From Candidatus Dojkabacteria bacterium (GTDB lineage: Bacteria > Patescibacteriota > Dojkabacteria > J137), in contig JAGQLF010000001.1 in assembly GCA_020429545.1 (NCBI GenBank), positions 1-36,646 of the forward strand: DNA of 36,646 bases, read 5' to 3'. How positions within the stretch are numbered: position 1 is the first letter of the stretch; each line of letters begins with the position of its first letter. The translations under genes and the position numbers were made by a program. Below the pieces are notes generated by a model. That model had not been told where the DNA came from and did not search any database. It saw only the letters and a list, made by a program, of their open reading frames with translations. Shown piece by piece: positions 756 to 36,192 of this stretch.

Positions 756-790
756 AGCTAGTAGCTAGCAGCTCGGAGCTAGGAGCTATA
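756..790. repeat. 5 x 7-nt phased array (AGCTAGT AGCTAGC AGCTCGG AGCTAGG AGCTATA)
   Basis: AGCT at 756, 763, 770, 777 and 784. Sits between convergent genes. The last unit supplies the TAG stop (786-788, minus) of the membrane protein. Confidence 0.9.
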
Positions 791-1916
791 GAAGAGTTCC
801 ATTAATTCCCCAACTGCTATTTATAACTAGCAAAAAGGTTATAAGGGCAACTAGAACCATATACTCCACCCAAACGTATCTGTTTAGGTTAGACCTAATT
901 TCTAGTGCAATACTTAAAAGAATATAGAAAACTACAGCAATAGATAAAATTGCATAAACATAGTTTACAGGCCAAATTGATAGTACAAAAATTGCATATA
1001 GAATGGTAAGAGTAATACTTAAAGACCTTATTATGCTCTGCTGAGGAGTTATGTGCTCTAACATCAAAATTGACGAGAATGTTAGATAAAATACAGGTGG
1101 ACCAATCAAAACTAATTTCTCAAAGAAATTAAAGTTAGCTCCAAAAAATAAAATCAAAATCAAATATGATGAAATCAAAGAGAATATAAATTGTGATGCC
1201 CTAGCCGCCTGTTCCAACGGAATCTTAACTTCAAGTGCAGTGTTTAATATATTAGTAGTCAAAATAACAAAATATGAGATAACGTAAAGAACTATAGAAA
1301 ACATAAACGAGAGAATAAACTTATTAAACTGAAACTGTTCTGCTATCAAAAAAGAAAGAGTTATTAAAATATAAGGAATAATTGAAAGTGCCGGATAAAA
1401 AATAATAACTTTAGATTTTAATGATTTAGTTTTAAATCCAACAACTGCGTACATGCCATAGGCAAGTGTAGCTACAATAACAGACGTTCTAAACAAAATT
1501 CCCAAAGTAATATTACCTCCAGCTTGCTGGTTAGCTATAACCGTCCCTTCTATAATATTAATTTTTGTTGTGGTTGTGGTAAATAAATCCCTTGTAGTAA
1601 TTACAATACTCTCTGGGATTTCGTCTGAATCTAAATCGTATTCAAAATCAGTTGATGTTTTTCCTAACTCAAAAATTTGATCGTTTATATTAATAGTTAT
1701 TTTTCTTAGGTCGATATCATCCGATTTATTCCACCTTAGCTTTATAGATTGTGTTGAGGTAGTTATCGAAATATTAGCAAGTTCATCTGGTGGTGTTACA
1801 ATATCTGCTACCCAATTAATGATTGGTGTCGTTAAAATAAAAAATAAAGCTGCGGCAATTCCTGCAACCCAAACAATCCTTAACCTAACTGGAATATTTT
1901 TTACAATCTTTATCAT
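786..1916 (-). CDS. multi-pass membrane protein, unknown family
   Basis: 376-aa ORF with ATG start. N-terminal TM helix (VWVAGIAAALFFILTTPII), then a ~110-aa hydrophilic T/D/I-rich segment, then about eight hydrophobic helices. The TAG stop lies inside heptamer array 756-790. Confidence 0.6.
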   Translation of the reverse strand: MIKIVKNIPVRLRIVWVAGIAAALFFILTTPIINWVADIVTPPDELANISITTSTQSIKLRWNKSDDIDLRKITININDQIFELGKTSTDFEYDLDSDEIPESIVITTRDLFTTTTTKINIIEGTVIANQQAGGNITLGILFRTSVIVATLAYGMYAVVGFKTKSLKSKVIIFYPALSIIPYILITLSFLIAEQFQFNKFILSFMFSIVLYVISYFVILTTNILNTALEVKIPLEQAARASQFIFSLISSYLILILFFGANFNFFEKLVLIGPPVFYLTFSSILMLEHITPQQSIIRSLSITLTILYAIFVLSIWPVNYVYAILSIAVVFYILLSIALEIRSNLNRYVWVEYMVLVALITFLLVINSSWGINGTLL

Positions 1917-2130
1917 TATTTCGAATTTTATCTACTCGCTATTTTACCGCGCACATAATATAAGAACAACTGACAACTAGGTTATTCTGACCAGATAGAT
2001 TTTCACTGAAAATACAAGTCATTAATAAATAGTAATTAATTGTTATTTATAGTTATTAAGTAATTATTAACAATTACTATCAATAACCTAATTACTACGA
2101 ATAACTAAAACATCGCTTGCCCATTAAAGT

Positions 2131-3132
2131 TCAAGTACTGCCAAGCCGTCTATACACCTCCTCTGCTTTATCAGTTATTTGCCTTCCTCTGTTTGTTCTT
2201 TGTATAAATCCTTTTTTTAGCAGAAATGGTTCGTATACAGTTTCTACTGTTTCTGGCTCCTCTGAAATTGAAGCAGCTAGTGTGCCAAGTCCTACGGGCC
2301 TCCCTTTAAAACTATCAATTAGACTGACCAATATCGCTCTATCTGTTCTGTTTAAACCATGTTCATCAATATCTAGTAGTTCTAAAGCTTCTCTTGTTGT
2401 ATCAATATCGATAGTGTCTTTATTGCCAACTGTTGCTAAATCTCTCACTCGTTTTAAAATTCTTATTGCTATTCTGGCTGTCATTCTGGCTCTTTTTGCA
2501 ATTTCTGCTGCTGCGCTATCGTCTATTCCAATACTCATCATTTTGGCTTTTTGTTTTACTAACTCAGTTAGTTCATTTTCCTCATAAAAATCTAGCCTAA
2601 AGTTCATACCAAATCTATCTCTTAGTGGAGCGCTAAGCATAGAAAGCTTTGTAGTTGCGCCAATTATTGTAAATTTAGGTAAATCTATTCTTAATGTTTT
2701 AGCATTTGGTCCTTTTCCAATAACAATATCAAGCACATTATCTTCCATGGCAGGATATAAAATTTCTTCAATTGTTCTTTTAAGTCTGTGAATTTCGTCA
2801 ATAAATAAAACAGAATATGGTTCAAGCGAAGTTAGAATTGCTGCCAAGTCTCCTGCTTTTTCAATTACAGAACCACTTGTCGCATGCAGTGTATAACCAA
2901 GCTCTTTTGCTATAACATATGCAAATGTAGTCTTTCCAAGTCCTGGTGGTCCATGAAAAAGTATATGATCCACAGCTGCATCTCTTTTCTTTGCAGACTC
3001 AATCATAATCTCTAAACTCCTCTTCTCTGCCTTTCTTCCAATTACTTCTTTAAAATTACTTGGTCTCAATGCCCCTTCAAATGCCACCTCATTTTCATTT
3101 TTAGCATCTGGTGTTGTAGCGTATTCATCCAT
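2131..3132 (-). CDS. ruvB: Holliday junction branch migration helicase RuvB
   Basis: Walker A GPPGLGKTT, Walker B LFIDEIH, AAA+ lid and C-terminal winged-helix region. Typical 333 aa. Lies 1 nt downstream of ruvA. TGA stop. Confidence 0.95.
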   Translation of the reverse strand: MDEYATTPDAKNENEVAFEGALRPSNFKEVIGRKAEKRSLEIMIESAKKRDAAVDHILFHGPPGLGKTTFAYVIAKELGYTLHATSGSVIEKAGDLAAILTSLEPYSVLFIDEIHRLKRTIEEILYPAMEDNVLDIVIGKGPNAKTLRIDLPKFTIIGATTKLSMLSAPLRDRFGMNFRLDFYEENELTELVKQKAKMMSIGIDDSAAAEIAKRARMTARIAIRILKRVRDLATVGNKDTIDIDTTREALELLDIDEHGLNRTDRAILVSLIDSFKGRPVGLGTLAASISEEPETVETVYEPFLLKKGFIQRTNRGRQITDKAEEVYRRLGST

Positions 3133-3133
3133 A

Positions 3134-3718
3134 CTATAGTGTTGATAGAAGTTTTTTTATTATATCTTGTTCTGAAGCATCACTTATAAATAAGTTATCT
3201 AACTTAGTCAAGTTAGATACTATATCTCTCTCTTTATAACCCAGATTCTTTAGAGCCTCTTTAACATTCTCTACTTTGCTATTATCAAATGTTCCAGTTT
3301 GGCCTAATAGAGTTGCATCTGTTGGAGCTGGAACCTTATCTCTTAGCTCTATTATTATTTTTTCTGCCGTCTTAGCACCAACACTTGAGACTTTTAGCCC
3401 TTTTGCATCTCCATTATAAATTGATGAAACTACTTCGTTATAACCTTTTGAAGTAATTATGTTCAAGGCTGTTTTTGCACCTACTCCTGAAATTGAAAGT
3501 AGTTTTTTAAAAAGTGATAGCTCTTCTTGTGAAGTAAAACCCCATAAAGAAATATCATCTTCTCTAACATTTGTATGTATAAATAGTTCTATCTCTTGAT
3601 CTTCTTTAATTGCTCCTGTGTTCACCGCATTAACCTTCCACCCTACTCCATTTGACAGGATTATTAAACTTCCATCATCAAAAATTGTTTTTATTTTTCC
3701 ACTTAAAAATCCAATCAT
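3134..3718 (-). CDS. ruvA: Holliday junction DNA-binding protein RuvA
   Basis: Typical MIGFLSGKI N-terminus, two helix-hairpin-helix motifs (ISGVGAKTALNI, VGAKTAEKII) and a C-terminal domain III. GAGG lies 4 nt upstream of ATG 3718. The ORF track extends to 3763 through non-conserved residues. Confidence 0.88.
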   Translation of the reverse strand: MIGFLSGKIKTIFDDGSLIILSNGVGWKVNAVNTGAIKEDQEIELFIHTNVREDDISLWGFTSQEELSLFKKLLSISGVGAKTALNIITSKGYNEVVSSIYNGDAKGLKVSSVGAKTAEKIIIELRDKVPAPTDATLLGQTGTFDNSKVENVKEALKNLGYKERDIVSNLTKLDNLFISDASEQDIIKKLLSTL

Positions 3719-3830
3719 GACCTCATTATACATTAAGAAATTACAAACAAGATGATTTAGCATTAAAATCGTTGTAGGTGCTTAGAATTATCTTTAAATT
3801 GGAAATTCGAAAAAAGAAATCCGAAATAAA

Positions 3831-3972
3831 TAGGAAATCTTGCTTTATCAGCAGTATAGGCTTGTCAGTTCGAGTGAAATTTGCGATAGCAAATTTTGTA
3901 TCTAGAACTCACTTCTCGATACAATTCTACTTCTCCCGATAAATCGGGATCAGTAGAATCACTCGAAGTAAC
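3831..3972. repeat. structured intergenic repeat, family 1 (cloverleaf-like four-way junction), copy A
   Basis: P1 TTCGAGTG (3869-3876) / CACTCGAA (3960-3967) encloses hairpins 3877-3896, 3898-3922 and 3924-3959. A TAGGAAAT box lies 37 nt upstream. Confidence 0.75.
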
Positions 3973-4000
3973 ACAGCTAGGGACAGGAATTTATAATTTT

Positions 4001-4035
4001 GCTAGAAGCCCGTAGCTAGCAGCTAGTGGCTATTT
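4001..4035. repeat. 5 x 7-nt phased array (GCTAGAA GCCCGTA GCTAGCA GCTAGTG GCTATTT)
   Basis: GCTA or GCCC at 4001, 4008, 4015, 4022 and 4029. It contains the ruvC TAG stop (4023-4025) and shares the 13-mer GTAGCTAGCAGCT with array 756-790. Confidence 0.85.
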
Positions 4036-7310: not shown

Positions 7311-10300
7311 GTGAAAATTACAAATATTAGAAGAAGTAGACAACTACTGCTTTTTGTTTTTGTTGCACTTTTTGGGATTTTACTTATTATTCCCTTTGAA
7401 AAAGTAAATATAATCAATGCAGCAACATTAACTTGGGATGGTGGTGGTGGAGACAACAATTGGAGTACATGTGCAAACTGGACAACAGATACATGCCCAG
7501 GTACATTAGATACTGTTATATTTGATGGTACAAGCACAAAAGATGCTGCAATTGATGCAAGTTTTACTGGGATAGTAAGATATCTTACTATAAGTTCTGG
7601 CTACACTGGTACCATTACTGCTAATAGATCGATTACAGTAGTATTAAATTTTGGACAAGCAGATGGCATTTTTGATTTGACAGATCAAAGTGGAACTTTT
7701 ACAACTACAAATATAACCGGAGGCTTGTTCACCGCATCATCTACAGATACTACTTTCAAAGGTCCACTTACCATTGATAATTCTAGTTATTTTGATGCAA
7801 ATGGAGGTAATGTAATTCTAGCTCCGGCCAGTAATGTAACCTATACTTATACCTGTAATAATACCGTTTTCAATCAGGTAACAATTTCACCTGTTGCTGC
7901 AAATGCTACGCTAAATATGACTGATAGTTGTAATTTTCCTTTAGGTAGTAACCCAACAATTAGTTCATCTTCAACAATCAAAGTTTATGGAGACTTAAGT
8001 GGTACTGGTGAGTTGGGATGGCCAGCTGCTAATTTACAAATCTATTCAACTGGTACATTAACTGGATTTAGTGGCTATAACACTGGTGCTTTGAGGCTTA
8101 CTGGAAAGACACTAGATTGGTCAGGGGCAACTACCTTTGCTATGACTGGTAATCTAACTATTGAATCTAGTGGTGGTCTGACACTTCCCTTGCCTACCGG
8201 TACAATACAAATATACGATTTAACTGTATCAACTTCTAGTACTTTTACAGCTTCTTCTGGGACTATGAATGTAAGAGGCGATATCACCCTATCAAATGGT
8301 ACGACATTCGATTCAAATGGAGGAACCATTAATTTAAATCCAACAGGGAATGTATCTTACGATTGCTATAGTCATACATTTGATTTAATTACTATTAATC
8401 CTGTAAATAATAATATTGATCTTAATATAAACTCTACATGTAACTTTCCTCTTGGTGATAATCCAACAATAACTGGAACCAATGTCGATTTAAATTTAGA
8501 TGGGACACTTTCTGGTACAGGTACATTAACAGCCAGTGCCGATAATCTATTTGTAGTTTCCGGCAGTATACTGTCTGGGTTTGATGGCTTAGAAGTTAGC
8601 AGACTTTATATTAATGGAGCAAATCTAGACCTAAGTAGTTATTCAACCTTAATAACCAACAGTAATTTTGAATTGATTTCAGGAAGTTTTGTTGCACCAT
8701 CTGGAGAAATGGAGGTAAAAGCAAATTTCTACCATACTGCAGGAACTTTTACACATAATAGTGGAACTATTAATTTTTCTGGAACTGGGATTCAAACAAT
8801 AACTGGCTCAACGACTTTTAATAATTTTACAAAAGTAATGACTGCAGATGTATCAAGTAGTTTAAGATTTACAAGTAATACAACTCAAACTATCGAGGGA
8901 GATATGACATTGCATGGATACAGCGATAGTCAAAGATTGAATTTGATTGCAAGCAGCAATACTGTTCAGTGGAATATTGATCCACAAGGAACAAGAGATT
9001 TACAGTATCTAAGTGTTAAAGATTCAAATAATATAAATGCAAGTGTAATAGTACTTAGTGGTACTGGAAGCAACGATGCAGGAAATAATACTAATTACGA
9101 TTTTGCGAATAGTGCCCCAGATGCTCCTAATACCCTAGGACCTTCAGGATATGTGAATGGAAGTTCAGATACCGATACAACTCCCACATTGACATTTAAA
9201 ATATCAGATGTAGCAAATCCTTTAGATACTCTACGATTTAGAATTCAGATTTCAGATACCAATGACTTTTCTAATGTTTTAGTAGATTACACATCTGCCC
9301 TAGCAGCTGCTGGAAGTAAAACTTTTACTGTTGGGCAAGCAGTAGGTAGCGGAACATATAATGTGGGGTCAATTGGACAAACTTTAGATAGTGATAGCTA
9401 TTATTGGAGAGTTAAGACCATAGATAACAGTGCTGCGGAATCTGCTTATTCAACTGCAAATTCAGGGTCAATTGCGTTTATAGTAGCTGGGTATCCTAAC
9501 TTACCTTATGCTTTTGGACCTGCGAATAAAATCGATGGGTCAGACTCAACCGAAGGACAACCTAACCTTTATTTTACCTTAGATGATCCTAATGCAGGGG
9601 ATACTGTTAAATACCAAATACAAATTTCCTTAGCAAGTGATTTTTCTACACAAGTTGTAGATTACACATCTGATTTAAGAGCACAGGGTGTTTCTAATTT
9701 TACTGTTGGTCAAGCAGCTGGTAGTGGAAGCTATACAACTGGAAGTTCTGGACAATCACTAGGGAGTGGAAGCTACTACTGGAGAGTTAAAGCAATTGAC
9801 ATTAATAATGAAGAATCTGTATTTAAAGCTGCTTCATTTGGGGGAATTGCTTTTGTAGTATCAAATCCTCCAGATGCACCAACCAACCTAGGACCTAATT
9901 TGTTAATTACTGGGGGCTTATCTACAGATGATACACCTACATTCTCATTTGACTTATCCGATTCAGATGTAGGAGATACAGTAAAGTACAGAATTGATAT
10001 TTCCACAAATAGTGACTACTCTGCTCTAGCCGCCAGTTTTACTTCGGCACTTAGTGCTCAAGGTTCCGCTAGTTTTACTGTAGGACAGTCTTTAAACGGT
10101 GGATCATATTTTCATGGATCTGTTGGAATGGATCTAAATGATGGTGACTATTATTGGAGGGTTAAAGCAATAGATAGCAATGGTGTTGAAGGTACTTACA
10201 CACTAGCTAACGCTGGTGGAATTGCCTTTTCAGTTGGAGGTAATCCGCCAGATACACCTTCCTCTCCAGGTCCAGTAAATCTAATAAATGGTTCTGTAAT

Positions 10301-12170
10301 TCAACAGCAGCAGCCTAGCTTTACCTTTTATATTTCAGATCCAGATTTAGATCAAGTGAAATATAGGATACAAATTTCAAAACGTTCTTCTTTTAATCCC
10401 GTTTTAATAAACTACGAATCTGCATTTGGATCAATCGGAACTAAAACATTCACCGTTGGACAAGCTTCAAATGGAGGTACATATTACTCAGGTTCAGAAG
10501 GTCAGGTTTTAGCACCTGGTGATTATTATTGGAAGATAAGGGCAATTGATATATCTGAATTGGGTTCTCCGTATCTAATACCAAATGGAGCCAATGTTGC
10601 TTTCACGGTATCCAGTGATAATGCAAACTCAGACACTCCATTAGAATATGTACCTGAATTACCAGCAGAGGTAGTTGTAGAGGTAGAAGAAAGTACGTCA
10701 AATGAAGAATCTACAAGTTCTGGCTCTGGTTCATCTTCATCACAACCTACTATAAAATTGAATTTATCAGACTCAAACTCATCTCAACAACTCCAATTTC
10801 AAATTGAGATCGACAATGAATCAGACTATGAAGATCCAGAAGTAATTTATAAGTCCGGATTGATGGAACAAGGTGAGGCTAGTTTTGTTGTGGGTCAGAC
10901 AACTGGTGATGGCCAATATTTAAATGGTTCTGAAGGACAAATATTGGGAGCTGGCGATTATTATGTACGAGCAAAAACTATTGATGAAAAGAGTAATGAG
11001 TCCGAATATTTTTATATAAATAATGGTAGTGTTGCATTTATAATCACTCCATCGTCAGAGTTGGAAATTATTCCCCCTACTGAAATTTCTACTAACAATA
11101 ACCCAACCAGTCCTGGAAATGATAGCGAAGGAATAAATAACCTAAGTGATTTGCATGATGTCCAGATTGAGCAAAATGGCCTAAATGCTATAGGTGAAGA
11201 AAATTCACCAGGTGATGTTTCAGCATCAGCACAAGAAGTTTATGTAGAAACAAAAACACTTGCAAAAGCTTTTACTGAAACTATCAGTAAAGAACCTATA
11301 ACCATACCTTTAGCTGTAGTAGCTACCACAACTCTTGCTACTCTAATTGCGTATCCTAGAATAATTCTTTTGATGATTGTTGTAATTAAAAATATGTTTA
11401 GGAAAAAGAAACAATGGGGAATTGTTTATGATAAAAACACTCTATCTATAATACCATTGGCTACAATTAGGCTCTATTCTTCAGATAATAAATACTTAAG
11501 AGAGACAATCACTGATTTTAAGGGACAATATGGTTTTGTTGTAGACGCTGGTGATTATATACTCCAAATAAAGCACTCTGAGTATATAAGCACAAAAGAG
11601 AAAATTAGAATTGAGAAGGAAGAAGACTTGTTAACAAGCGACATTGAGCTAAATAAAAGTAACAAAAAAAGAATGTCCATCTTCAAAAAAATACAGAAGT
11701 CTATGCGAGAACGATTGCCTTCTATTTGGCAAGGATTATTCTTTATAGGGTTCGCAGTAGCTGTTATTTCATTTATAAATGCGAGTGAAGCACCCAATCT
11801 GTTTATATTACTTATGTTTGTTTTCTCAATAGCATTTTATACGTTTAGATCAATCATATTCGCTAGTCCATGGGGATATTTATATGATTTATCAGATAAT
11901 TCAAGAATATCTAGGGCAATAGTCCGAGTAATTAATACTAAAAATAATAAAGTCGAAGAAATAACGGTTACCGATGAAAAAGGTAGATTCCTAATTAAAA
12001 ATAAGAAAGGAAACTATAAACTAATGATTAGTTCAGATAAATACACTCTACCTGATTCAGAAAATCAAAACATTTCTATAAAAGAATTGAATAATTCAAG
12101 CCTAAAAATTGGATTAGAAAAATCTGCTGATACTTCTAAAAATAATGTAGCAAAATTTGGTGTGTTATAG
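7311..12170 (+). CDS. giant (1619 aa) repeat-rich cell-surface protein with C-terminal membrane-embedded module
   Basis: GTG start and an N-terminal signal/anchor helix. LTWDGGGGDNNWSTCANWT motif followed by a T/S/G/N-rich beta-helix-like region with ~172-aa modules. Five ~124-aa tandem beta-sandwich-like domains share P-D-A-P..LGP, KYRIQIS, FTVGQ and YYWRVKAID. An acidic/serine linker follows, then three TM helices interleaved with two CarboxypepD_reg-like segments (GIVYDKNT.., GYLYDLSD..). Confidence 0.85.
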   Translation: MKITNIRRSRQLLLFVFVALFGILLIIPFEKVNIINAATLTWDGGGGDNNWSTCANWTTDTCPGTLDTVIFDGTSTKDAAIDASFTGIVRYLTISSGYTGTITANRSITVVLNFGQADGIFDLTDQSGTFTTTNITGGLFTASSTDTTFKGPLTIDNSSYFDANGGNVILAPASNVTYTYTCNNTVFNQVTISPVAANATLNMTDSCNFPLGSNPTISSSSTIKVYGDLSGTGELGWPAANLQIYSTGTLTGFSGYNTGALRLTGKTLDWSGATTFAMTGNLTIESSGGLTLPLPTGTIQIYDLTVSTSSTFTASSGTMNVRGDITLSNGTTFDSNGGTINLNPTGNVSYDCYSHTFDLITINPVNNNIDLNINSTCNFPLGDNPTITGTNVDLNLDGTLSGTGTLTASADNLFVVSGSILSGFDGLEVSRLYINGANLDLSSYSTLITNSNFELISGSFVAPSGEMEVKANFYHTAGTFTHNSGTINFSGTGIQTITGSTTFNNFTKVMTADVSSSLRFTSNTTQTIEGDMTLHGYSDSQRLNLIASSNTVQWNIDPQGTRDLQYLSVKDSNNINASVIVLSGTGSNDAGNNTNYDFANSAPDAPNTLGPSGYVNGSSDTDTTPTLTFKISDVANPLDTLRFRIQISDTNDFSNVLVDYTSALAAAGSKTFTVGQAVGSGTYNVGSIGQTLDSDSYYWRVKTIDNSAAESAYSTANSGSIAFIVAGYPNLPYAFGPANKIDGSDSTEGQPNLYFTLDDPNAGDTVKYQIQISLASDFSTQVVDYTSDLRAQGVSNFTVGQAAGSGSYTTGSSGQSLGSGSYYWRVKAIDINNEESVFKAASFGGIAFVVSNPPDAPTNLGPNLLITGGLSTDDTPTFSFDLSDSDVGDTVKYRIDISTNSDYSALAASFTSALSAQGSASFTVGQSLNGGSYFHGSVGMDLNDGDYYWRVKAIDSNGVEGTYTLANAGGIAFSVGGNPPDTPSSPGPVNLINGSVIQQQQPSFTFYISDPDLDQVKYRIQISKRSSFNPVLINYESAFGSIGTKTFTVGQASNGGTYYSGSEGQVLAPGDYYWKIRAIDISELGSPYLIPNGANVAFTVSSDNANSDTPLEYVPELPAEVVVEVEESTSNEESTSSGSGSSSSQPTIKLNLSDSNSSQQLQFQIEIDNESDYEDPEVIYKSGLMEQGEASFVVGQTTGDGQYLNGSEGQILGAGDYYVRAKTIDEKSNESEYFYINNGSVAFIITPSSELEIIPPTEISTNNNPTSPGNDSEGINNLSDLHDVQIEQNGLNAIGEENSPGDVSASAQEVYVETKTLAKAFTETISKEPITIPLAVVATTTLATLIAYPRIILLMIVVIKNMFRKKKQWGIVYDKNTLSIIPLATIRLYSSDNKYLRETITDFKGQYGFVVDAGDYILQIKHSEYISTKEKIRIEKEEDLLTSDIELNKSNKKRMSIFKKIQKSMRERLPSIWQGLFFIGFAVAVISFINASEAPNLFILLMFVFSIAFYTFRSIIFASPWGYLYDLSDNSRISRAIVRVINTKNNKVEEITVTDEKGRFLIKNKKGNYKLMISSDKYTLPDSENQNISIKELNNSSLKIGLEKSADTSKNNVAKFGVL
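7791..8822 (+). repeat. internal ~516-nt (172-aa) module repeat in the N-terminal beta-helix-like region of the giant protein
   Basis: FDANGGNVILAPASNVTYTYTCNNTVFNQVTISP..CNFPLGSNPTI..LSGTGEL (from 7791) is paralleled by FDSNGGTINLNPTGNVSYDCYSHTFDLITINP..CNFPLGDNPTI..LSGTGTL (from 8307). A third partial module starts near 8750 (HNSGTINFSGTG). Confidence 0.7.
9111..11046 (+). repeat. five tandem ~372-375-nt (124-125 aa) domain repeats inside the giant protein
   Basis: Units start at about 9111, 9489, 9861, 10236 and, after a ~130-nt acidic/Ser linker, 10743. Protein motifs are conserved but the DNA has diverged, so the duplication is old. Confidence 0.85.
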
Positions 12171-12248: not shown

Positions 12249-12725
12249 ATGTCTTTAACTAAACAGGATTTACAATTAATTAAAGAAGTCGTAGGTGAGG
12301 TATTTGATGAGAAATTCCAGCCTGCATTTGATATTGCATTTGAACGTAGTTTTCAATCTGCGTTTGATAAAGCTTTCAATAAAGCTTTTGGGCCAGCTTT
12401 TGATAAGGCTTTTGATAAGGCTTTTGATATTGCATTTGATAGAGCTTTTGATAAAAGATTTAAACCTGCCTTCGAAGAGGCATTTGATGAAAAACTTACT
12501 ATAATTCAATCTATGATTTCAGAATCAGCAATTGCCCAAACAGACATAATGTTTAAATATTTTGCAAGTAAAGATGATTTAGATATAGCAGTTGAAAAAT
12601 TAACTAGTACAAGTTTAGATTCAAGAGTTATTACTTTAGAAAAGACAGTTGCTAATCATAGTTACAAATTAGATGTTGATCCGTTACCTTGGATTGAAGA
12701 AAAACTAAAATCTTTAAAAAATTGA
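12249..12725 (+). CDS. small protein with 16 consecutive xxFx (mostly xAFD) tetrad repeats
   Basis: 158-aa ORF. Phe occurs at residues 19, 23, ... 79 with exact 4-residue spacing (KAFDKAFDIAFDRAFD..). The C-terminal ~75 aa is non-repetitive and probably helical. TGA stop is followed directly by TAA. Confidence 0.6.
   Translation: MSLTKQDLQLIKEVVGEVFDEKFQPAFDIAFERSFQSAFDKAFNKAFGPAFDKAFDKAFDIAFDRAFDKRFKPAFEEAFDEKLTIIQSMISESAIAQTDIMFKYFASKDDLDIAVEKLTSTSLDSRVITLEKTVANHSYKLDVDPLPWIEEKLKSLKN
12297..12500 (+). repeat. 12-nt (4-codon) tandem repeat, about 17 units (consensus GCTTTTGATAAG)
   Basis: Read directly from the sequence. The repeat has no stops in other frames, which explains ORF-track artefacts 12276-12509(-) and 12295-12504(+). 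Confidence 0.9.
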
Positions 12726-16654: not shown

Positions 16655-16668
16655 AAATATGAATTACG

Positions 16669-20837: not shown

Positions 20838-20941
20838 AAAATAAATTCAAAAGTAAAAATTCAAAAATCAAAATTATTAATTAAGTTAGTATATTTTTAG
20901 ACCTATAGTTAACTTCATCAAAGTCTATAGTCTGTTCACAA

Positions 20942-23198: not shown

Positions 23199-23231
23199 AT
23201 TTTTGTGTATTTATTAAATAAGGACTTGGTA

Positions 23232-23240
23232 ATAATAACA
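23232..23240 (-). promoter_or_regulatory. candidate extended -10 promoter (TGTTATTAT) for rpsU
   Basis: A minus-strand TGnTATTAT lies about 35 nt upstream of ATG 23198, downstream of hairpin element C. Confidence 0.35.
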
Positions 23241-23266
23241 TGCTGTATAAAGAAAATCTAGTTATT

Positions 23267-23385
23267 CTCCCCTCGAGGGGAGTGGTATGAATTGAGCTTA
23301 GCGATAATTCATACCAAGGGGTGTTACTGTAACACCTTCCGGCCAACCCTAACAAGTTAGGATTGGCCACCCTCCTCAAGGAGGG
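23267..23385. repeat. structured intergenic repeat, family 2 (five consecutive GC-rich hairpins), copy C
   Basis: h1 23267-23282, h2 23284-23315, h3 23320-23336, h4 23341-23368, h5 23370-23385. Lies between the rseP stop and rpsU. Confidence 0.8.
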
Positions 23386-23395
23386 AAAATTAAAT

Positions 23396-25991: not shown

Positions 25992-26054
25992 ATGAATTTA
26001 TTATAAATGATAAGTTAACGAGTACCAAGTTTTTAGCACTCAGAATTTTGTTTT

Positions 26055-26176
26055 CCTTCTCCTTTTAGGAGAAGGTGGCATAAAGTTAAGCGTAGCGTAT
26101 ACTTTATGCCGGATGAGGTCTTGACCTCACCTTTCTTTTGCCTTCGGCAAAATTTATCCTCTCCTACAAGGAGAGG
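26055..26176. repeat. structured intergenic repeat, family 2 (five GC-rich hairpins), copy D
   Basis: h1 26055-26075, h2 26077-26110, h3 26114-26129, h4 26136-26152, h5 26158-26176. Lies between the rpsB stop and tsf. Confidence 0.8.
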
Positions 26177-28644: not shown

Positions 28645-28745
28645 TTTCTTCGAATTACTGATTAAATCACATACTGAGCGGGACTGCCACGTCGTTCGTT
28701 ACACTCACTCCTCGCAGATCGCCGGATATTTTTAATTCGTAATTT

Positions 28746-30977
28746 TTAATTATCCTCCTCTTTCTTAGGTTGTTTTTTCACCTTTTGAATATCCTTTACC
28801 TTTGGATAATCTGGGTGTGCCCAGAAGTAACCATACTTTCCAGAACGTAGTAGATACTCATCTCCCTTATCTGTTTTTGGAGCTGGTCCAAAAAGCTCTG
28901 TTCTTTTCTTTTTTGTATATTCTAAAGGACGAGCATCTTTTACCTTTGGATAGTCTGGGTGTGCCCAGAATTCTCCAAATCTACCCTTCTTTAAAACATA
29001 ATCCCTTTCATCTTCAGTTTTTGGAGCTGGCATATATGTTTCTTGGAATTCTTTTGTTGTTGGTTTCTTTTCAAATTCTTCTTGAGATTCTCCATCCATA
29101 CTTAAAATTCCTTCACAATCTGGCCAACGTGAACATGTATAGAATCTTCCATACTTTCCTAATTTTATTAGCATTTTTGAATTACACTCAGGACATTTAA
29201 TATCTTTTGGTGCTTTTCCTAAAATTTTAAAATCATCTCTAGTTATAGTTTTTTCTGTTTCTTTCACATTTTTTGCAAATGGTTTATAGAAATCTTTCAA
29301 CATTTTTTTCCAGTCTAAACCTCCATCAGCAATAGTATCCAGATTGTCTTCCATCTCTGACGTAAAGTCATAGTCTACAATGTCTTTAAAGTGTGATACG
29401 AGAAGTTTATTTACAACGATTCCTGTATCTGTTGGAAATAGGTATCTTCCTTCTTTTTCTACATATTTTCTCGACAAAATTGTTGAGATAATTGATGAGT
29501 ATGTTGATGGTCTTCCAATTCCAAGCTCCTCAAGCTTTTTAATTAGTGATGCTTCAGAGTATCTTGCTGGTGGCTGTGTGAAGTGCTGATCAGCTCTAAT
29601 TTCTTTGTGGTAGAACTTATCTCCTTTTGTAACTTCTGGCAGTATTGTTTCGTTTTGCTTTTCAGCTTTTACTCTTAAATATCCATCAAACAAAACTCTT
29701 GTTCCAGTTGCTTTGAATTTATGCTTGCCAGCCACAGCTGTAATTGTCATTGTTTCTACTCTTGCAGGATTCATTTGTGAAGCAATTGCTCTATTTCTAA
29801 TTAGTCTATACAACTTTTTTTGTTCTTCTTTAAAAGATTTATCATCTTCTAAATCCATCTTTACTGGTCTAATTGCCTCGTGAGCTTCCTGTGCAGTTTT
29901 ACTTTTAGTACTGTACATTACAGGTTTTTCTGGCAAGTATTTATCTCCGTATTTACTTTTAATCTCTTTTCTTGCTGCGTCTATTGCCTGCTTTGATAGA
30001 GAAATAGAATCCGTTCTCATGTATGTAATGAATCCTGCTTCGTATAGCTTTTGAGCAACCATCATTGTTCTTTTTGAGCTAAATCCAAGTGTGTTTACAG
30101 CGGCTTGCTGCAATGTACTTGTAGTAAATGGTGGCTTTGGATTTCTTTTAGATTCTTTCTTAACAACATCTTCTACAATTAAATGTTCTTTTTCAATTTC
30201 TTTAATAATCTTTTCTGTTTCTTTTTTATCTTTTAGCCCTTTCTTTTTAGAATCGTAAATATATTCAAAAGGAATTAGCTTTGGATCAATTTTATCTTTC
30301 TTTTGCTCTTCATCATCTTCATCTTCTTTTTCTTTGATTTCTATTACGACTTTGTTACCTTTCTTATCTGTTGCATAACTGATTAAAGACCAATACTCAA
30401 CAGCTTCAAACTTGTTTCTCTCTTCTTCCTTTTCCACAACTAGTCTAAGGGCAACTGATTGAACTCTACCTGCGGACAAACCAAACATAATTTTTTTCCA
30501 TAGCACTGGAGAAAGTGTGTAACCAACAAGTCTGTCTAAAATTCTTCTCGCTTGTTGAGCATTAACTAAATTCATATCTACTTTTCTTGGATGTTCAATT
30601 GCCTCTTTTATTGCATCTTCAGTTATTTCACTAAAGACAATTCTTTCCACATCATGTCCTTTCTTTGGGTTACCGCCTTCAGTTAGTGCTCCTAGTTTTT
30701 GTGCAACATGCCAAGCAATTGCTTCACCTTCCCTATCTAAGTCGACAGCTAGTATTAATTTATCTGCTCCTTTATATGCTTGTTTTAATTCTTTTAAAGA
30801 CTTATCGTTTTTGACTTCGTAGTCAACCTTAAAGTCGTTATCAACATCAACACCCATTTTAGATTTAGGTAAATCTACAACATGGCCCTTAGATGCTTTA
30901 ACAACGTAATCTTTTCCAAGATACTTATTTATTGTTTTTGCCTTAGAAGGCGACTCTACAACTACTAATGACTTCAT
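28746..30977 (-). CDS. topA: DNA topoisomerase I
   Basis: Toprim N-terminus (VVVESPSKAKTI), DxD region (VDLDREGE), and active-site Tyr region ITYMRTDS. One C4 zinc ribbon (CPECNSK..CSRWPDC) plus two Cys-less C-terminal repeats. Confidence 0.95.
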   Translation of the reverse strand: MKSLVVVESPSKAKTINKYLGKDYVVKASKGHVVDLPKSKMGVDVDNDFKVDYEVKNDKSLKELKQAYKGADKLILAVDLDREGEAIAWHVAQKLGALTEGGNPKKGHDVERIVFSEITEDAIKEAIEHPRKVDMNLVNAQQARRILDRLVGYTLSPVLWKKIMFGLSAGRVQSVALRLVVEKEEERNKFEAVEYWSLISYATDKKGNKVVIEIKEKEDEDDEEQKKDKIDPKLIPFEYIYDSKKKGLKDKKETEKIIKEIEKEHLIVEDVVKKESKRNPKPPFTTSTLQQAAVNTLGFSSKRTMMVAQKLYEAGFITYMRTDSISLSKQAIDAARKEIKSKYGDKYLPEKPVMYSTKSKTAQEAHEAIRPVKMDLEDDKSFKEEQKKLYRLIRNRAIASQMNPARVETMTITAVAGKHKFKATGTRVLFDGYLRVKAEKQNETILPEVTKGDKFYHKEIRADQHFTQPPARYSEASLIKKLEELGIGRPSTYSSIISTILSRKYVEKEGRYLFPTDTGIVVNKLLVSHFKDIVDYDFTSEMEDNLDTIADGGLDWKKMLKDFYKPFAKNVKETEKTITRDDFKILGKAPKDIKCPECNSKMLIKLGKYGRFYTCSRWPDCEGILSMDGESQEEFEKKPTTKEFQETYMPAPKTEDERDYVLKKGRFGEFWAHPDYPKVKDARPLEYTKKKRTELFGPAPKTDKGDEYLLRSGKYGYFWAHPDYPKVKDIQKVKKQPKKEEDN
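28749..29033 (-). repeat. two ~144-nt C-terminal repeats within topA (GRFGEFWAHPDYPKVKD / GKYGYFWAHPDYPKVKD)
   Basis: The DNA blocks TTTACCTTTGGATA(A/G)TCTGGGTGTGCCCAGAA at 28795 and 28939 are 144 nt apart. Confidence 0.8.
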
Positions 30978-33827: not shown

Positions 33828-34846
33828 AAGAATATCAAATCTTTAACTTCTAAATTCTCTAAAAGGTCTGGGGAGTTATTAATTATTTCTAATCCCATCA
33901 CTGTAGCCTTGATAGGATCTGTAATTTGTAACTTCAGTTTAACATGCTTTTTAATTTCGTTAGAAAATTCTTTTATCAGAAATAGTCCTCCAGAAACAGT
34001 TATACCTTCTTCTAAAAGCTGATCTAACTCTGATGTCGATGCTTTTTCTATCATTTTCTTTAACTCAACTATTACAACAGAGAATTCTTCTATGATTACA
34101 TTTGTGATCTCAGATTGATAAACTTCAAACTCTACTGGTAGTCCGTCTTTCAAATTCTTACCTTTTAGTTGAACTATCTTTTTCTTTGAAGATGAAAAGT
34201 CCATCTCACTAATAACTTTGTTTATAGATTTTAGGGAGATATCAATAAGATACTTATCCTTTATATAATCTTGAACTGACGAAAGTATATTTACTGAGCC
34301 AAAGTAAAATGTGTTGTCATAACAGATTTCATTGTTAATAATTATCAACAAATCTGTAATTGAGTATCCAATTTTACATACAATTCCTGACCCTATTTCT
34401 GAATCACTATACAAAGCTGCTACACCCTCATTTACAAAAGTTACTGAACTGACTCCAAATGATTCAAGTGCATCTGTATAGGCTGAAATTTCAACCTCTG
34501 AGGATGTTGAGTGTATGCTTGCAACTATGTTTGGCCTAAAGAATTTAGTTTTCCTACCCATTTGTTCTAAAATCACGGCTAGCTCATGATGTAAAAATAG
34601 CTCAGAAGCTTTATAGTCATGGATTGTTCCATTTATTACAGGAGAAATCTTTCTATACTTTTTTGTTGAGTATTTAGTTACAGCCTCTTCCCCAATAAAT
34701 ATTACTTCGTCATAATCTTTAGAAACACATATAACTGATGGCTTAGTTTCAAATAGATTGATGCTAGGTGCATAGACTTTAAACTGATCTGTTCCAAACT
34801 CAATATAAATATATTCTGCATTATTTTTACGAAAATTTTTGAACAC
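33824..34846 (-). CDS. divergent MreB-like actin-fold protein
   Basis: Collinear with MreB (YIEFGTDQF for the phosphate-1 DLGT motif; SGGLFLIKEF..ITDPIKATVMG for GGGALL..DPL..V.G). The phosphate-2 DIGGGTT is replaced by KIGYSIT. GTG start. 4-nt overlap with the PBP2 gene. Confidence 0.6.
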   Translation of the reverse strand: MFKNFRKNNAEYIYIEFGTDQFKVYAPSINLFETKPSVICVSKDYDEVIFIGEEAVTKYSTKKYRKISPVINGTIHDYKASELFLHHELAVILEQMGRKTKFFRPNIVASIHSTSSEVEISAYTDALESFGVSSVTFVNEGVAALYSDSEIGSGIVCKIGYSITDLLIIINNEICYDNTFYFGSVNILSSVQDYIKDKYLIDISLKSINKVISEMDFSSSKKKIVQLKGKNLKDGLPVEFEVYQSEITNVIIEEFSVVIVELKKMIEKASTSELDQLLEEGITVSGGLFLIKEFSNEIKKHVKLKLQITDPIKATVMGLEIINNSPDLLENLEVKDLIFL

Positions 34847-34855
34847 TTTAAAATG

Positions 34856-34897
34856 AGTAAATAGTAATTAGTGTTGAGTATTGAGTAATTAGTTACT
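34856..34897. repeat. 6 x 7-nt phased array (AGTAAAT AGTAATT AGTGTTG AGTATTG AGTAATT AGTTACT)
   Basis: AGT at 34856, 34863, 34870, 34877, 34884 and 34891. Starts 10 nt from the MreB-like start codon. Confidence 0.85.
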
Positions 34898-34908
34898 ATA
34901 GTCTTGAA

Positions 34909-34943
34909 CACTAAATGCTCAGTACTAATTACTGGCTACTTTT
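34909..34943. repeat. 5 x 7-nt phased array (CACTAAA TGCTCAG TACTAAT TACTGGC TACTTTT), complementary type
   Basis: RCT at 34910, 34917, 34924, 34931 and 34938. ACTAATTACT (34924-34933) is the exact complement of AGTAATTAGT (34884-34893). Confidence 0.85.
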
Positions 34944-34990
34944 ACAAATTATATATGAAGATGTCTATATGAGGTAGTAATTTAAAAATA

Positions 34991-35063
34991 AGCTGAAACT
35001 GGGAATTGAACCCAGGACCTCACCCTTACCATGGGTGCGCTCTACCATCTGAGCTATTCCAGC
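34991..35063 (-). tRNA. tRNA-Thr (anticodon GGU)
   Basis: Minus strand: GCTGGAA TA GCTC AGATGGTA GAGC G CACCC ATGGTAA GGGTG AGGTC CTGGG TTCAATT CCCAG TTTCAGC + discriminator T. Cloverleaf with one G:U in the acceptor. CCA is not encoded. Confidence 0.9.
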
Positions 35064-35195
35064 ACTTACTTAAATTAACTTGTCAATTTAGTCTCGCCGA
35101 AGCTTAAGCGAAGGCGGACTATTCCAGCATTTATTACGAGTTAAAATTGTCAACTTAGTCTCGCCGTAGCTTCAGCGAAGGCGGGCTATTCCAGC
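35064..35195 (-). repeat. two tandem 66-nt units, each starting (minus sense) with the tRNA-Thr 5' decamer GCTGGAATAG followed by a GC-rich hairpin
   Basis: Units are 35064-35129 and 35130-35195. The hairpin is TAGTC-T-CGCC / GGCG-GACTA with loop GAAGCTTAAGCGAA or GTAGCTTCAGCGAA. They lie directly upstream of tRNA-Thr(GGU). Confidence 0.85.
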
Positions 35196-35254
35196 TTTTA
35201 TGAATCTGGAAGATTATACAATATTAGATCTTTTGAATGTGAGAATAAAAAATA

Positions 35255-35337
35255 TCCGGAGAGAAGGATTTGAACCTCCGTAGTCCTGGGACGCCTGATT
35301 TACAGTCAGGTGCGATTGACCGCTCCGCCATCTCCGG
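35255..35337 (-). tRNA. tRNA-Tyr (anticodon GUA), class II, with C1:G72
   Basis: Minus strand: CCGGAGA TG GCG GAGCGGTCAAT CGC A CCTGA CTGTAAA TCAGG CGTCCCAGGACTAC GGAGG TTCAAAT CCTTC TCTCCGG A. U8 and U33 are in register. 83 nt. CCA is not encoded. Confidence 0.85.
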
Positions 35338-35342
35338 AAACA

Positions 35343-35420
35343 AGTACCAAGTACTGAGTTTTTAGTACTTAGTTATTTTATTAATTTCTAAGTACTCAGT
35401 ACTAATTACTAAAAACTGAA
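35343..35420. repeat. inverted pair of 5 x 7-nt arrays forming a long hairpin between tRNA-Thr(UGU) and tRNA-Tyr
   Basis: Left arm: AGT at 35343/50/57/64/71. Right arm: (A/T)CT at 35387/94/401/408/415. AGTACTTAG (35364-35372) pairs with CTAAGTACT (35388-35396). AGTACTG (35350-35356) pairs with CAGTACT (35397-35403). Confidence 0.85.
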
Positions 35421-35424
35421 CTGG

Positions 35425-35497
35425 AGCTGGAACTGGGACTCGAACCCAGGACCGACTGTTTACAAAACAGTTGCTCTACCAACTGAGCTATTCCAGC
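35425..35497 (-). tRNA. tRNA-Thr (anticodon UGU)
   Basis: Minus strand: GCTGGAA TA GCTC AGTTGGTA GAGC A ACTGT TTTGTAA ACAGT CGGTC CTGGG TTCGAGT CCCAG TTCCAGC + T. Perfect acceptor stem. Confidence 0.92.
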
Positions 35498-35562
35498 AAT
35501 CTAATTGTTAAATCTACGTTTTTCCTTTCTGTTTATCACTTAAAAAACCAACTGCTCAATAA

Positions 35563-35604
35563 GGTCATCATTTTATAAACGTAGTGCAATAAAATGATTT
35601 GACC
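35563..35604. other. long AT-rich hairpin (9 bp + 2-nt bulge + 5 bp)
   Basis: GGTCATCATTTTAT-aaacgtagtgca-ATAAAATGATTTGACC. Located between the tRNA-Thr fragment and tRNA-Thr(UGU). Confidence 0.6.
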
Positions 35605-35607
35605 GCA

Positions 35608-35706
35608 TTAGTCCCGACAATGTCGGGGAGCTATTCCAGCACTTACTTAAATTAACTTGTCAATTTAGTCTCGCCGTAGCTTCAGCGAAGGCGGACTATT
35701 CCAGCA
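35608..35706 (-). repeat. 13-nt tRNA-Thr 5' fragment fused to a hairpin, plus a third 66-nt GCTGGAATAG-hairpin unit
   Basis: 35628-35676 is identical over 49 nt to 35051-35099, i.e. the first 13 nt of tRNA-Thr(GGU) plus its upstream flank. About 80 nt aligns with 2 mismatches. The tRNA body is replaced by TCCCCGAC-att-GTCGGGA. Confidence 0.85.
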
Positions 35707-35717
35707 TAACTGTATCG

Positions 35718-35788
35718 AGTAATGAATTTTTAGTACTTAGTTATTTTGTTAACTTCTAAGTACTCAGTACTAACTACTCTGTACTAAT
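35718..35788. repeat. second copy of the AGTACT-word hairpin (4 + 5 heptamer units)
   Basis: 35727-35778 is near-identical to 35359-35410 (TTTTTAGTACTTAGTTATTTTrTTAAyTTCTAAGTACTCAGTACTAAyTACT). The right arm has (A/T)CT at 35755/62/69/76/83. Confidence 0.85.
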
Positions 35789-35803
35789 TTAAAGTGCTCA
35801 TCA

Positions 35804-35833
35804 AGTATAGCAAAAGGTTATAAAACTTTGCAA
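35804..35833 (-). promoter_or_regulatory. candidate promoter of the minus-strand tRNA cluster (TTGCAA-N18-TGcTATACT)
   Basis: Minus strand: -35 at 35828-35833, -10 at 35804-35809, TG at 35811-35812. Confidence 0.45.
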
Positions 35834-35856
35834 AATATTTAATTTTGATATAAAAT
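35828..35856 (+). promoter_or_regulatory. candidate rpmB promoter (TTGCAA-N17-TAAAAT, overlapping TGATATAAA)
   Basis: The -35 hexamer is palindromic (TTGCAA) and shared with the divergent tRNA promoter. -10 at 35851-35856. ATG at 35886. Confidence 0.45.
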
Positions 35857-35885
35857 CTACACGTTATTTAAACAATTTCAAAGAA

Positions 35886-36125
35886 ATGGCACGAGTTTGC
35901 GAAATATCAGGAAGAAAAACAAGAACAGGAAATAGAATTCAGCACAGAAGAGGTAAGTCTGGATCTGGAGGAGCGTGGAATTATAAGGCACCTAAGACAA
36001 AAAGAACTTGGAAACCTAATCTAAGAAAGGTTAAAGTTAACATTAACGGCACTACAAAAAGAATCAAAGTTAGCATGAAAGAGTACAAAAAAATGCGAAA
36101 AGAATCTGAAGCTCTAGCTAACTAA
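35886..36125 (+). CDS. rpmB: 50S ribosomal protein L28
   Basis: MARVCEISGRKTRTGNRIQHRRGKSGSGG...KPNLRKVKV matches the L28 core. 79 aa. Confidence 0.9.
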   Translation: MARVCEISGRKTRTGNRIQHRRGKSGSGGAWNYKAPKTKRTWKPNLRKVKVNINGTTKRIKVSMKEYKKMRKESEALAN

Positions 36126-36143
36126 TTGACTCTACTTTCATAA

Positions 36144-36192
36144 GACTATAAACTCAGTACTAAATACTCAATATTCATTATTAACTACTCTT
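36144..36192. repeat. 7 x 7-nt phased array (GACTATA AACTCAG TACTAAA TACTCAA TATTCAT TATTAAC TACTCTT)
   Basis: AYT cores at 36145, 36152, ... 36187 (five ACT, two ATT). The array ends 1 nt before ATG 36194. Confidence 0.7.

Follow-up and report, generated by a model that had tools for sequence, protein, structure and literature searches.

The 36.6-kb stretch analysed here, taken from a Candidatus Dojkabacteria contig and referred to below as the window, has a GC content of 33%, is dense with housekeeping genes and carries in about 40% of its intergenic gaps (10 of roughly 25) short arrays of 7-nt units that share a core of a few nucleotides. These heptamer arrays are of the same still-unexplained kind as the repeats found in cyanobacteria, Bacteroidetes and giant sulfur bacteria; the lineage in which they occur is new. 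We give an about even chance to the reading that they are heptanucleotide families of the type of the cyanobacterial short tandemly repeated repetitive (STRR) elements, born by slippage and retained at gene boundaries.

The 7-nt phasing, first described in a first-pass annotation of the window that was made from the sequence letters, is not random. The self-match of intergenic DNA at lags of 7 and 14 nt amounts to 0.331, compared to 0.28-0.30 at other lags, and coding DNA shows a 3-nt periodicity only, without lag-7 signal, an array in a linker of dnaX being the one exception. Identical in-phase 3-mers recur every 7 nt over at least 4 units at 12 intergenic loci (dinucleotide shuffles: mean 0.13, maximum 2 of 300) and over at least 5 units at 7 loci (shuffle mean 0.007). 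For periods of 5, 6, 8, 9 and 10 nt the same count of 3-mer runs in intergenic DNA gives 0-1 without enrichment, so that period 7 alone is enriched. A second detector, requiring at least 18 of 28 lag-7 matches, finds 11 arrays in the window where 0.19 are expected. The notion that AT-rich intergenic DNA produces the pattern by chance or through its composition can draw on the weakness of the blocks at 17509-17529, 26018-26045 and 35718-35745 and on the subjectivity of unit boundaries, but it has practically no chance of being correct, as it is ruled out by the shuffle counts and the lag-7 detector, with an about 90- to 1000-fold enrichment over dinucleotide shuffles that is specific to period 7, and arrays are also present in independent assemblies and relatives.

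Of the 12 main blocks listed initially, ten hold a core of 2-4 nt that is found, with exact 7-nt spacing, in no fewer than 4 of 5 units. Weaker are 36144-36192 (ACT in 5/7 units) and 35718-35745 (AGT in 3/4), and the two "shorter runs" at 17509-17529 and 26018-26045 are marginal. Absent from that list were arrays at 3796-3826, 16651-16682, 20843-20875 and 28726-28755, plus the four TTTGACT units at 21870-21898. Tandem Repeats Finder (TRF) assigns 68-84% matches to the arrays of the window. The statement that there are usually exactly five units did not hold up: exact-core runs comprise 4-6 units in the window, orthologous arrays 3-5, and other arrays in relatives up to 8 and 14, and the impression of five units partly depends on where the boundaries are drawn. 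The housekeeping genes of the window include ruvABC/yebC, dnaB, L31, prfA, S6-ssb-S18, dnaX-ybaB-recR, rseP, frr, tsf, rpsB, topA, dprA, PBP2, mreB, L28 and four tRNAs. The individual arrays are as follows, motifs being given in the sense of the flanking genes where so marked.

756-790, no strand assigned: five AGCTAGn units (AGCT in 5/5; TRF period 7, 4.7 copies) between the convergent genes for a GNAT protein (173-748, + strand) and a membrane protein (786-1916, - strand), holding the TAG stop of the latter.
3796-3826, - strand: five TTTCnnn units (sense), about 30 nt upstream of the ruvA start.
4001-4035, - strand: five nnnTAGC units (sense) holding the ruvC TAG stop; GCTA in 4/5, GC in 5/5.
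16651-16682, + strand: three units of GAATTAC/GAATTAA directly 3' of the prfA stop; next comes a short hairpin containing GC.
17509-17529, - strand: marginal run of 3 units after the ctpA stop, below the detection thresholds.
19051-19085, - strand: five AAnAGCT units, or GCTAAnn (sense); AG in 5/5, AGC in 4/5; ends 6 nt before the rpsR (S18) start.
19168-19202, - strand: five nnnTAGC units (sense), GCTA in 5/5; the first unit is the ssb TAG stop.
20843-20875, - strand: four TTTTGAn units (sense) abutting the recR start codon.
20942-20976, - strand: five TAGnnnn units (sense), CTA in 5/5; begins at the ybaB TAA-TAG stop.
21870-21898, - strand: four perfect TTTGACT units (100% matches in TRF) inside the dnaX open reading frame (ORF), where they fall in a linker of low complexity (AGTCAAA in sense, encoding the peptide VKSQKSKVK).
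26018-26045, - strand: marginal run in the rpsB-tsf gap; a clearer AGTA-type array is present in the orthologous gap of contig L005.
28726-28755, - strand: AATTnnn units (GAATTAA/AATTACG) at the topA stop.
34856-34897, - strand: six nnTACTn units (sense) forming the 3' arm of a hairpin, AGT in 6/6; ends about 8 nt before the mreB GTG.
34909-34943, - strand: units AGTAGCC, AGTAATT, AGTACTG, AGCATTT and AGTGTTC (sense) forming the 5' arm of the mreB hairpin; CT in 5/5.
35343-35377, - strand: AGTnnnn arm (as read on the + strand), AGT in 5/5, of a hairpin that fills the tRNA-Thr(tgt)-tRNA-Tyr spacer.
35386-35420, - strand: complementary nnCTnnn arm (as read on the + strand) of the tRNA-spacer hairpin; CT in 5/5.
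35718-35745, - strand: arm of the second copy of a 67-nt hairpin (90% identical); AGT in 3/4 units.
35754-35788, - strand: partner arm of the second 67-nt hairpin copy; CT in 5/5, TACT in 4/5.
36144-36192, + strand: seven nACTnnn units that take up the whole L28-trmH gap and stop 3 nt short of the trmH ATG.

The arrays sit at the very edges of the intergenic regions, either on the stop codon or abutting a start, ending 0-8 nt before the mreB, rpsR, recR and trmH starts, those of mreB and trmH following TACT arrays. As initially observed, the stop codon itself is an array unit in several genes: those for the membrane protein, ruvC and ssb end in an in-array TAG, and ybaB ends in TAA-TAG. The ssb-rpsR gap illustrates the layout, with (TAGCnnn)x5 from the ssb stop, 82 nt, (GCTAAnn)x5, 6 nt and the ATG. 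The proposed orientation rule, according to which arrays read UAG/AGY after stops and CUA/ACU before starts, describes the window, with the previously unlisted TTTTGAn and TTTCnnn arrays as exceptions, but weakens to a mere tendency when ten Dojkabacteria loci are taken together. At these loci, TAG prevails over CTA in 12 versus 7 post-stop arrays, the sense strand of array-like post-stop segments contains more G than C (0.168 versus 0.106), and CTA prevails over TAG in 9 versus 6 pre-start arrays, which display no G/C asymmetry. A rule of G-poor leaders for pre-start arrays fails outside the AGTA/TACT family. Of two paired arms, the first was the one containing G in all cases seen, among them those in candidate division WWE3 and in Salinimicrobium; since this order reads alike on both strands, it is uninformative on the direction of transcription. 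A Shine-Dalgarno-like motif is found upstream of only 21 of 211 genes in the window and contigs L003, L005 and L039-L045, where leaders have about 79% A+T, and low use of Shine-Dalgarno sites is common to Dojkabacteria and the other phyla known for heptamer repeats. The 34 stop codons of the window divide into 18 TAA, 12 TAG and 4 TGA, two of the latter in ATGA overlaps; an alternative genetic code was ruled out, with ORFs intact under table 11 and TGA at 4/34 stops.

We compared the window with other Dojkabacteria contigs. The nearest other genome is that of the metagenome-assembled genome (MAG) HKST-UBA13 (contigs L003 and L039), with 84% amino-acid identity and an identity of about 0.53-0.565 (differing 0.435) at 4-fold degenerate sites; contigs L001 and L002 stem from the same strain and are identical to the window, so that neither provides comparative information. 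Period-7 arrays are enriched on most of the Dojkabacteria contigs compared: they number 3 in L003, 5 in L039, 2 in L005, 2 in L040, 4 in L042 and 4 in L043, with 0.1-0.3 expected on each, and 1 in L045 versus 0.39 expected, while the lag-7 detector finds none in L041 and L044. The ybaB stop is occupied by TAG arrays in the window, L039, L047 and L043, and the core in the ybaB-recR gap differs by genome (GCT in L040, TAG in the window). At the ssb stop there are (T/G)AGC arrays of 5 units in the window, of 5 in L046 and of 3 in L039. The ssb-rpsR gap measures 93-152 nt with arrays in three genomes versus 3-27 nt without array in six relatives (range L040-L045, L047); its interior is not conserved among the window, L039 and L046, and in its rpsR-proximal array L039 retains GCTA cores and L046 AGCT cores, with differing spacers. 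The tRNA-Thr(tgt)-tRNA-Tyr spacer, 83 nt long in the window, consists throughout of an AGTA/TACT pair; this inter-tRNA hairpin is shared with L005 and absent in L003, which has a 14-nt spacer.

Alignments of the window with HKST-UBA13 contain 14-nt and 7-nt gaps inside arrays. The array before recR is shorter by exactly 14 nt (2 units) in L039. The mreB 3' arm has 5 units in L003, which appears as a 6-nt alignment gap and corresponds to about one unit by count, and the L28-trmH gap of L003 lacks about one unit, the difference being 8 nt or 11 nt depending on the alignment, an ambiguous case. The relatives also harbor perfect arrays, namely (TAGGTTA)x8 in L043 and (CTAAATG)x14 at positions 1-108 of L049, at the contig end. 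As arrays are present or absent and differ in length among relatives, they must have been gained, lost and resized. Of the three origins offered initially, namely protein-binding sites, stop traps and slippage-generated hairpin arms, the last is favoured by the 7- and 14-nt indels between relatives and by the perfect arrays. Within arrays of the window aligned to their orthologs, core columns diverge by 0.21 versus 0.42 for spacer columns (Fisher p = 0.008), compared to 0.435 for neutral 4-fold sites, and the 5' arm upstream of mreB is identical to that of L003 in 33 of 35 bases despite a 4-fold identity of only 0.53-0.56. A metagenome scan with MreB and a blastn search of one hairpin against a plasmid collection yielded no match.

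The heptamers fall into several families, namely AGTAnTn together with its complement, (T/G)AGCnnn/AGCTnnn, TAGnnnn, GAATTAn, CGAAAnn/TTTCnnn and TTTTGAn. Copies are dispersed over the window, amongst them five TACT arms that are 73-80% alike, three AGCT arrays that are 70-81% alike (81% for the arrays at 756-790 and 4006-4032), the 67-nt hairpin duplicated with 90% identity, and two GAATTA arrays that are 88% complementary (16651-16682 and 28728-28751), whose GAATTACGAATTAA motif is also found after stops in L042 and L047. The CGAAAnn family, to which the array upstream of ruvA belongs, has three dispersed copies in L047. A 33-nt array composed of the units TAGTTTA, TAGTTGA, TAGTCCA, TAGTTTA and a final TAG occurs at three sites, after recR in L043 (6851-6888) and after two tRNAs in L049 (2222-2256 and 2527-2565), and lies at a synteny breakpoint of two contigs with identical SSB, which reflects recombination at the arrays or, alternatively, repeats at which the assembly was joined. 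A relation to restriction-modification palindromes was considered and rejected: AGCT, CTAG, AATT and GTAC do not segregate with intergenic DNA, GTAC alone being mildly denser there.

Beyond Dojkabacteria, we carried out a metagenome search with the 19-mer AGTAATTAGTACTGAGYAT, which is common to three Dojkabacteria arrays. Half of the matches lie in a phage coding region without arrays and were therefore counted as coincidence. There, the 19-mer AGTAATTAGTACTGAGTAT is found once in a conserved coding region of contigs of about 72-167 kb (most about 95 kb; L007-L010, L014, L015, L017, L020, L021, L024, L026, L028 and L035-L038), some of them listed as viral, which we infer from their size to be crAss-like. 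The other matches are genuine AGTA-type heptamer arrays in WWE3, a Bacteroidota MAG and Salinimicrobium. The WWE3 arrays are located in the hrcA-grpE-dnaK region, with an inverted heptamer pair ending 6 nt before the dnaK ATG, and the arrays of the Bacteroidota contig comprise 8-12 units. A limited literature search found no description of heptamer repeats in candidate phyla radiation (CPR) bacteria.

The AGTA and TACT arms are complementary, as had been proposed, and their pairs alone fold significantly, giving long and imperfect stems that are AU-rich and have energies between -17 and -29 kcal/mol. Folded in the orientation of the flanking genes, they reach z scores of -2.4 to -5.8 (n=7); the weakest of all eleven folds is the + strand of 35712-35795 with z = -1.8. 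Hairpin formation as a general feature of the arrays did not survive: the AGCT array at 756-790 does not fold significantly (z -0.6), and neither do the ssb-rpsR and ybaB-recR spacers. Intrinsic (Rho-independent) terminators were rejected as an explanation, with only 2 terminator-like hits in 34700-36300 versus 0.8 expected, one of them inside a tRNA, and with AU-rich stems. Short CTCC...GGAG hairpins such as cttctccctttgggagaagg, located at 16683-16702, 23370-23385, 26158-26176 and 26055-26075 and following prfA, rseP and rpsB, are more terminator-like than the heptamer arrays, which they often adjoin. By consensus match only, a promoter-like TTGCAA-18-TATACT (35833-35804, - strand) is situated 16 nt upstream of the 35788-35718 hairpin, and a promoter-like TTGACT-17-TAAACT overlaps the start of the trmH array at 36144-36192.

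Heptamer arrays were recognised in cyanobacteria from about 1990 on and afterwards in Bacteroidetes and Beggiatoaceae. The initial claim that no described element has such an architecture has to be withdrawn, as STRR repeats (PMC2670836), heptanucleotide long simple sequence repeats (LSSRs) and TAACTGA repeats (PMC4679880) are of the same kind. The 7-bp STRR repeats of cyanobacteria form hairpins between hupS and hupL and in leaders; roles in transcript stability or translational coupling have been proposed, their function being unknown (PMC2670836). The Dojkabacteria arrays share with them the tandem 7-bp unit, the several dispersed families, the confinement to non-coding DNA, the length variation by 7 nt and the hairpins between cistrons and in promoter or leader regions, such inverted intercistronic hairpins being formed by the AGTA/TACT pairs and not by the TAGC/GCTA pair or the unpaired arrays. 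They differ in their host, a CPR bacterium with a small 33% GC genome rather than a filamentous cyanobacterium, in their degeneracy and small size (4-6 units, each with a core of 3-4 nt and spacers free to vary), and in that many lie exactly on stop or start codons.

The TAACTGA repeats of marine Beggiatoaceae, Cyanobacteria and Bacteroidetes are located directly upstream of starts that lack a Shine-Dalgarno site, with occasional reverse-orientation sets right after stops and with stops in all frames in one orientation; they display 7-nt indels between strains, and close relatives have short, repeat-free gaps (MacGregor 2015, PMC4679880). The Dojkabacteria arrays likewise abut Shine-Dalgarno-poor starts in the ACU-reading orientation, follow stops, vary by 7 nt, have stops in all frames in one orientation and are missing from the short gaps of some relatives. 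In contrast, TAACTGA itself occurs in the window as 11 single copies and not in tandem, the nearest array unit being AGTTATT, 1 mismatch from the reverse-complement register, and several families and common inverted pairs are seen here, whereas one indirect repeat is reported for BOGUAY. According to the summary in PMC4679880 of the work of Mrazek et al. (2007), heptanucleotides are the dominant class of longer simple sequence repeats (SSRs) in many prokaryotes and mostly non-coding, and a polymerase-linked slippage origin has been proposed for them. Unlike LSSRs, which are near-perfect long runs, most Dojkabacteria arrays are too short or degenerate for standard SSR criteria.

According to the reading we favour, replication slippage in 7-nt steps would give rise to the arrays and resize them, and recombination or some copying process would carry copies from one site to another. 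Arrays would be tolerated outside ORFs only, because one orientation has stops in all three frames, and with the stop-rich orientation at the 3' end of a gene, 7-nt length changes would therefore never extend the protein. They may persist by being transcribed within spacer or leader RNA in a lineage nearly without Shine-Dalgarno sites. An array and its inverted copy around a spacer (AGUA...UACU) could fold into an AU-rich stem-loop of 20-30 bp, and such stem-loops, at the transcript 5' end, between tRNAs and between cistrons, might serve as a generic stabiliser or processing site, bringing stop and start together.

Several observations weigh against this reading. The retention of cores amid drifting spacers is not accounted for by pure slippage, and neither is the 17-19-mer AGTAATTAGTACTGAGT, which is found at different sites in three Dojkabacteria, WWE3 and Bacteroidota; the size of the 7-nt unit is left without explanation. 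Arrays are absent from some relatives and orthologous spacers, and therefore no single array is essential. At the level of RNA structure, long-range pairing of the ssb and rpsR arms (TAGC with GCTA) is unsupported by folding of the window, the sense strand is not consistently the more stable strand among the array folds, RNAalifold reveals no net covariation in the array hairpins, and in an arm-swap test cognate arms perform no better than non-cognate arms (-24.7 versus -24.3 kcal/mol). Because of the missing covariation and cognate preference and the unstructured arrays, hairpin potential is a family property of inverted copies, neither locally co-evolved nor general to arrays.

Amongst the alternatives, it is rather unlikely, in our estimate, that the arrays are periodic sites of an oligomeric protein binding single-stranded RNA or DNA, with one 3-4 nt core per subunit or domain every 7 nt. 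Modelled on HutP or on tandem cold-shock or S1 domains, such a protein would compete with the hairpin and regulate termination, stability or re-initiation at the next gene. The exact 7-nt phasing speaks for such sites, as do the conserved cores next to near-neutral spacers in orthologous arrays, the TAG or (T/G)AGC cores that, at the stops of ybaB and ssb, are kept in three or four genomes while the spacers change, and a limited unit repertoire common to several phyla; that cognate arms are not co-adapted would be expected if arms act individually. The precedent of HutP had been quoted correctly: it reads three XAG triplets with U4 spacers, a 7-nt period, with XAG in both of its sites (PMC2425495). 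For the TAACTGA repeats, S1, Csp and CsrA have been named as candidate binding proteins (PMC4679880). The post-stop arrays of ybaB, ssb and ruvC and the AGUA arms similarly carry (U/G)AG every 7 nt, and triplet arrays adjoin a hairpin in both systems. HutP, however, binds 3+3 XAG of the same polarity that flank a GC-rich terminator upstream of one operon, with a linker of 12-17 nt, whereas the Dojkabacteria arrays have 4-6 units, many cores, a complementary (CUA/ACU) arm, AU-rich stems, linkers of 6-82 nt and dozens of sites. TRAP binds about 11 (G/U)AG triplets with 2-3 nt spacers, in contrast to the 4-nt spacing and 4-6 units found here. A single HutP- or TRAP-like reader, as envisaged initially, does not readily fit at least five unrelated core families, cores that differ at the same gap between genomes (ybaB-recR) and a second arm that is complementary rather than another XAG site. 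No HutP, TRAP, Hfq, CsrA or cold-shock domain is detected by Pfam among the proteins of the window, L041 and L044 are without arrays, and the perfect arrays of 8-14 units look mutational.

It is unlikely that the paired arrays are miniature mobile or copy-pasted palindromes, with inverted ends that merely chance to consist of heptamers, inserted into tiny gaps with their arms touching stop and start, comparable to repetitive extragenic palindromes and bacterial interspersed mosaic elements (REP/BIME) or to miniature inverted-repeat transposable elements. REP/BIME are dispersed imperfect palindromes with proposed roles in mRNA stabilisation and recombination. Here, too, palindromes are dispersed after stops and inside operons and vary in presence between relatives, as in the same-spacer differences between 14 nt (L003) and 83 nt (window) for the tRNA spacer and between 3-27 nt and 93-152 nt for ssb-rpsR. 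The 90% identical copies of the 67-nt hairpin, the one array at three sites and a synteny breakpoint, and the other insertions held by the same gaps (123 nt in recR-S6, tRNA-fragment modules) point in the same direction. REPs, however, are not built of phased tandem heptamers, the array alignment contains no target-site duplications or common ends, and the window has no gene for a transposase or a REP-associated tyrosine transposase (RAYT). Half of the arrays are unpaired, the ssb-rpsR interior is not conserved between the window, L039 and L046, and the changes of unit number within arrays point to in-situ slippage.

Less probable still, and in our view very unlikely, is that the arrays are primarily frame-independent stop traps, in which UAG (with UAA and UGA) every 7 nt covers all three frames. 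This would fit the TAG- and G-rich sense strand of post-stop arrays (TAG>CTA in 12/19 informative arrays), the real stop being a unit in four genes, and the stop-rich arm coming first on both strands in paired arms. Yet with a GC content of 33%, a stop turns up in each frame within about a dozen codons in any case, and three units would suffice; moreover, the TTTTGAn, TTTCnnn and GAATTAn arrays and the TACT arms before starts or tRNAs are not stop-rich in the relevant sense, and arrays are also present in tRNA spacers and at a divergent promoter region (L003 5881-5990).

Apart from the heptamers, the gaps contain other repeated sequences. A module of about 67-80 nt is present in three copies that are 65-98% alike (35051-35197 and 35628-35707, - strand sense), inserted between tRNA genes as well as in the stretch from the promoter-like site to tRNA-Thr(tgt). 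Its parts are the initial 10-12 nt of tRNA-Thr GCTGGAATAG, a spacer with TTGACA and a GC-rich hairpin gtctcgccgaagcttaagcgaaggcggac, and it is absent from L003, where the spacers measure 14 and 41 nt; in sequence, these modules look like repeated insertions duplicating the 5' end of the tRNA. In the recR-S6 gap, about 20100-20222 is a 123-nt insertion relative to HKST-UBA13, directly 3' of the recR stop and with hairpins cacttcgagcgatcctgatttatcaggattgtatcgagaagt. It resembles about 3880-3960 in the ruvC-ruvA gap (inverted match 3898-3923 / 20153-20178), and the two may represent a second, non-heptamer family of small inserted elements. Upstream of rpsF (20010-20095, - strand), an S6 leader of about 85 nt is about 95% identical to L039, compared to 0.86 for the whole gap and 56% at 4-fold sites. 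It also aligns in L046 and has no Rfam hit at the gathering threshold; it is probably a conserved regulatory leader of the S6-ssb-S18 operon. Rfam identifies four tRNAs only in the window.

As regards the gene content, the genes for the small ribosomal proteins S18 (18811-19044, - strand), S21 (22998-23198, - strand) and L28 (35886-36125, + strand) fall below the 80-aa ORF cut-off. They redraw three "long intergenic regions", the unassigned remainder between S21 and rseP being 195 nt (23199-23395). A pair of a MazE-like antitoxin and a PIN-domain toxin (16779-17442, - strand) is inserted between ctpA and prfA; it is found in L040 and absent at the ctpA-prfA position in L039. Repeats of another type lie within ORFs: an in-frame 12-nt repeat TTTGATAAAGCT of about 8 copies (12303-12487, ORF 12249-12725) in a 158-aa protein without Pfam match, and four 375-nt in-frame repeats (9323-10485, ORF 7311-12170) in a surface-type protein of 1619 aa.

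The occurrence in CPR extends heptamer arrays to a third, very distant group in which the use of Shine-Dalgarno sites is rare, and it does so with arrays whose cores are constrained while the spacers drift. The arrays are short and degenerate enough to evade standard repeat finders, and as they are found at contig ends and synteny breakpoints, they are relevant to MAG assembly. With their very small genomes and with both array-rich and array-free sisters, these bacteria can be used for phylogenetic profiling of array makers or readers. The reading that would make the arrays important is that of a periodic protein-binding code, read by an oligomeric factor binding single-stranded RNA or by a Shine-Dalgarno-independent initiation machinery (for example S1 or cold-shock domains covering about 7 nt each) and coupling termination to initiation, which we consider decidedly improbable. 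If it were true, a factor bound to the (N)AG arm next to the stop would undo the pairing between the arms and link termination to the next initiation. Such coupling would operate in lineages with little Shine-Dalgarno pairing (CPR, Bacteroidota and Cyanobacteria) and would provide a common function for the STRR and TAACTGA repeats.

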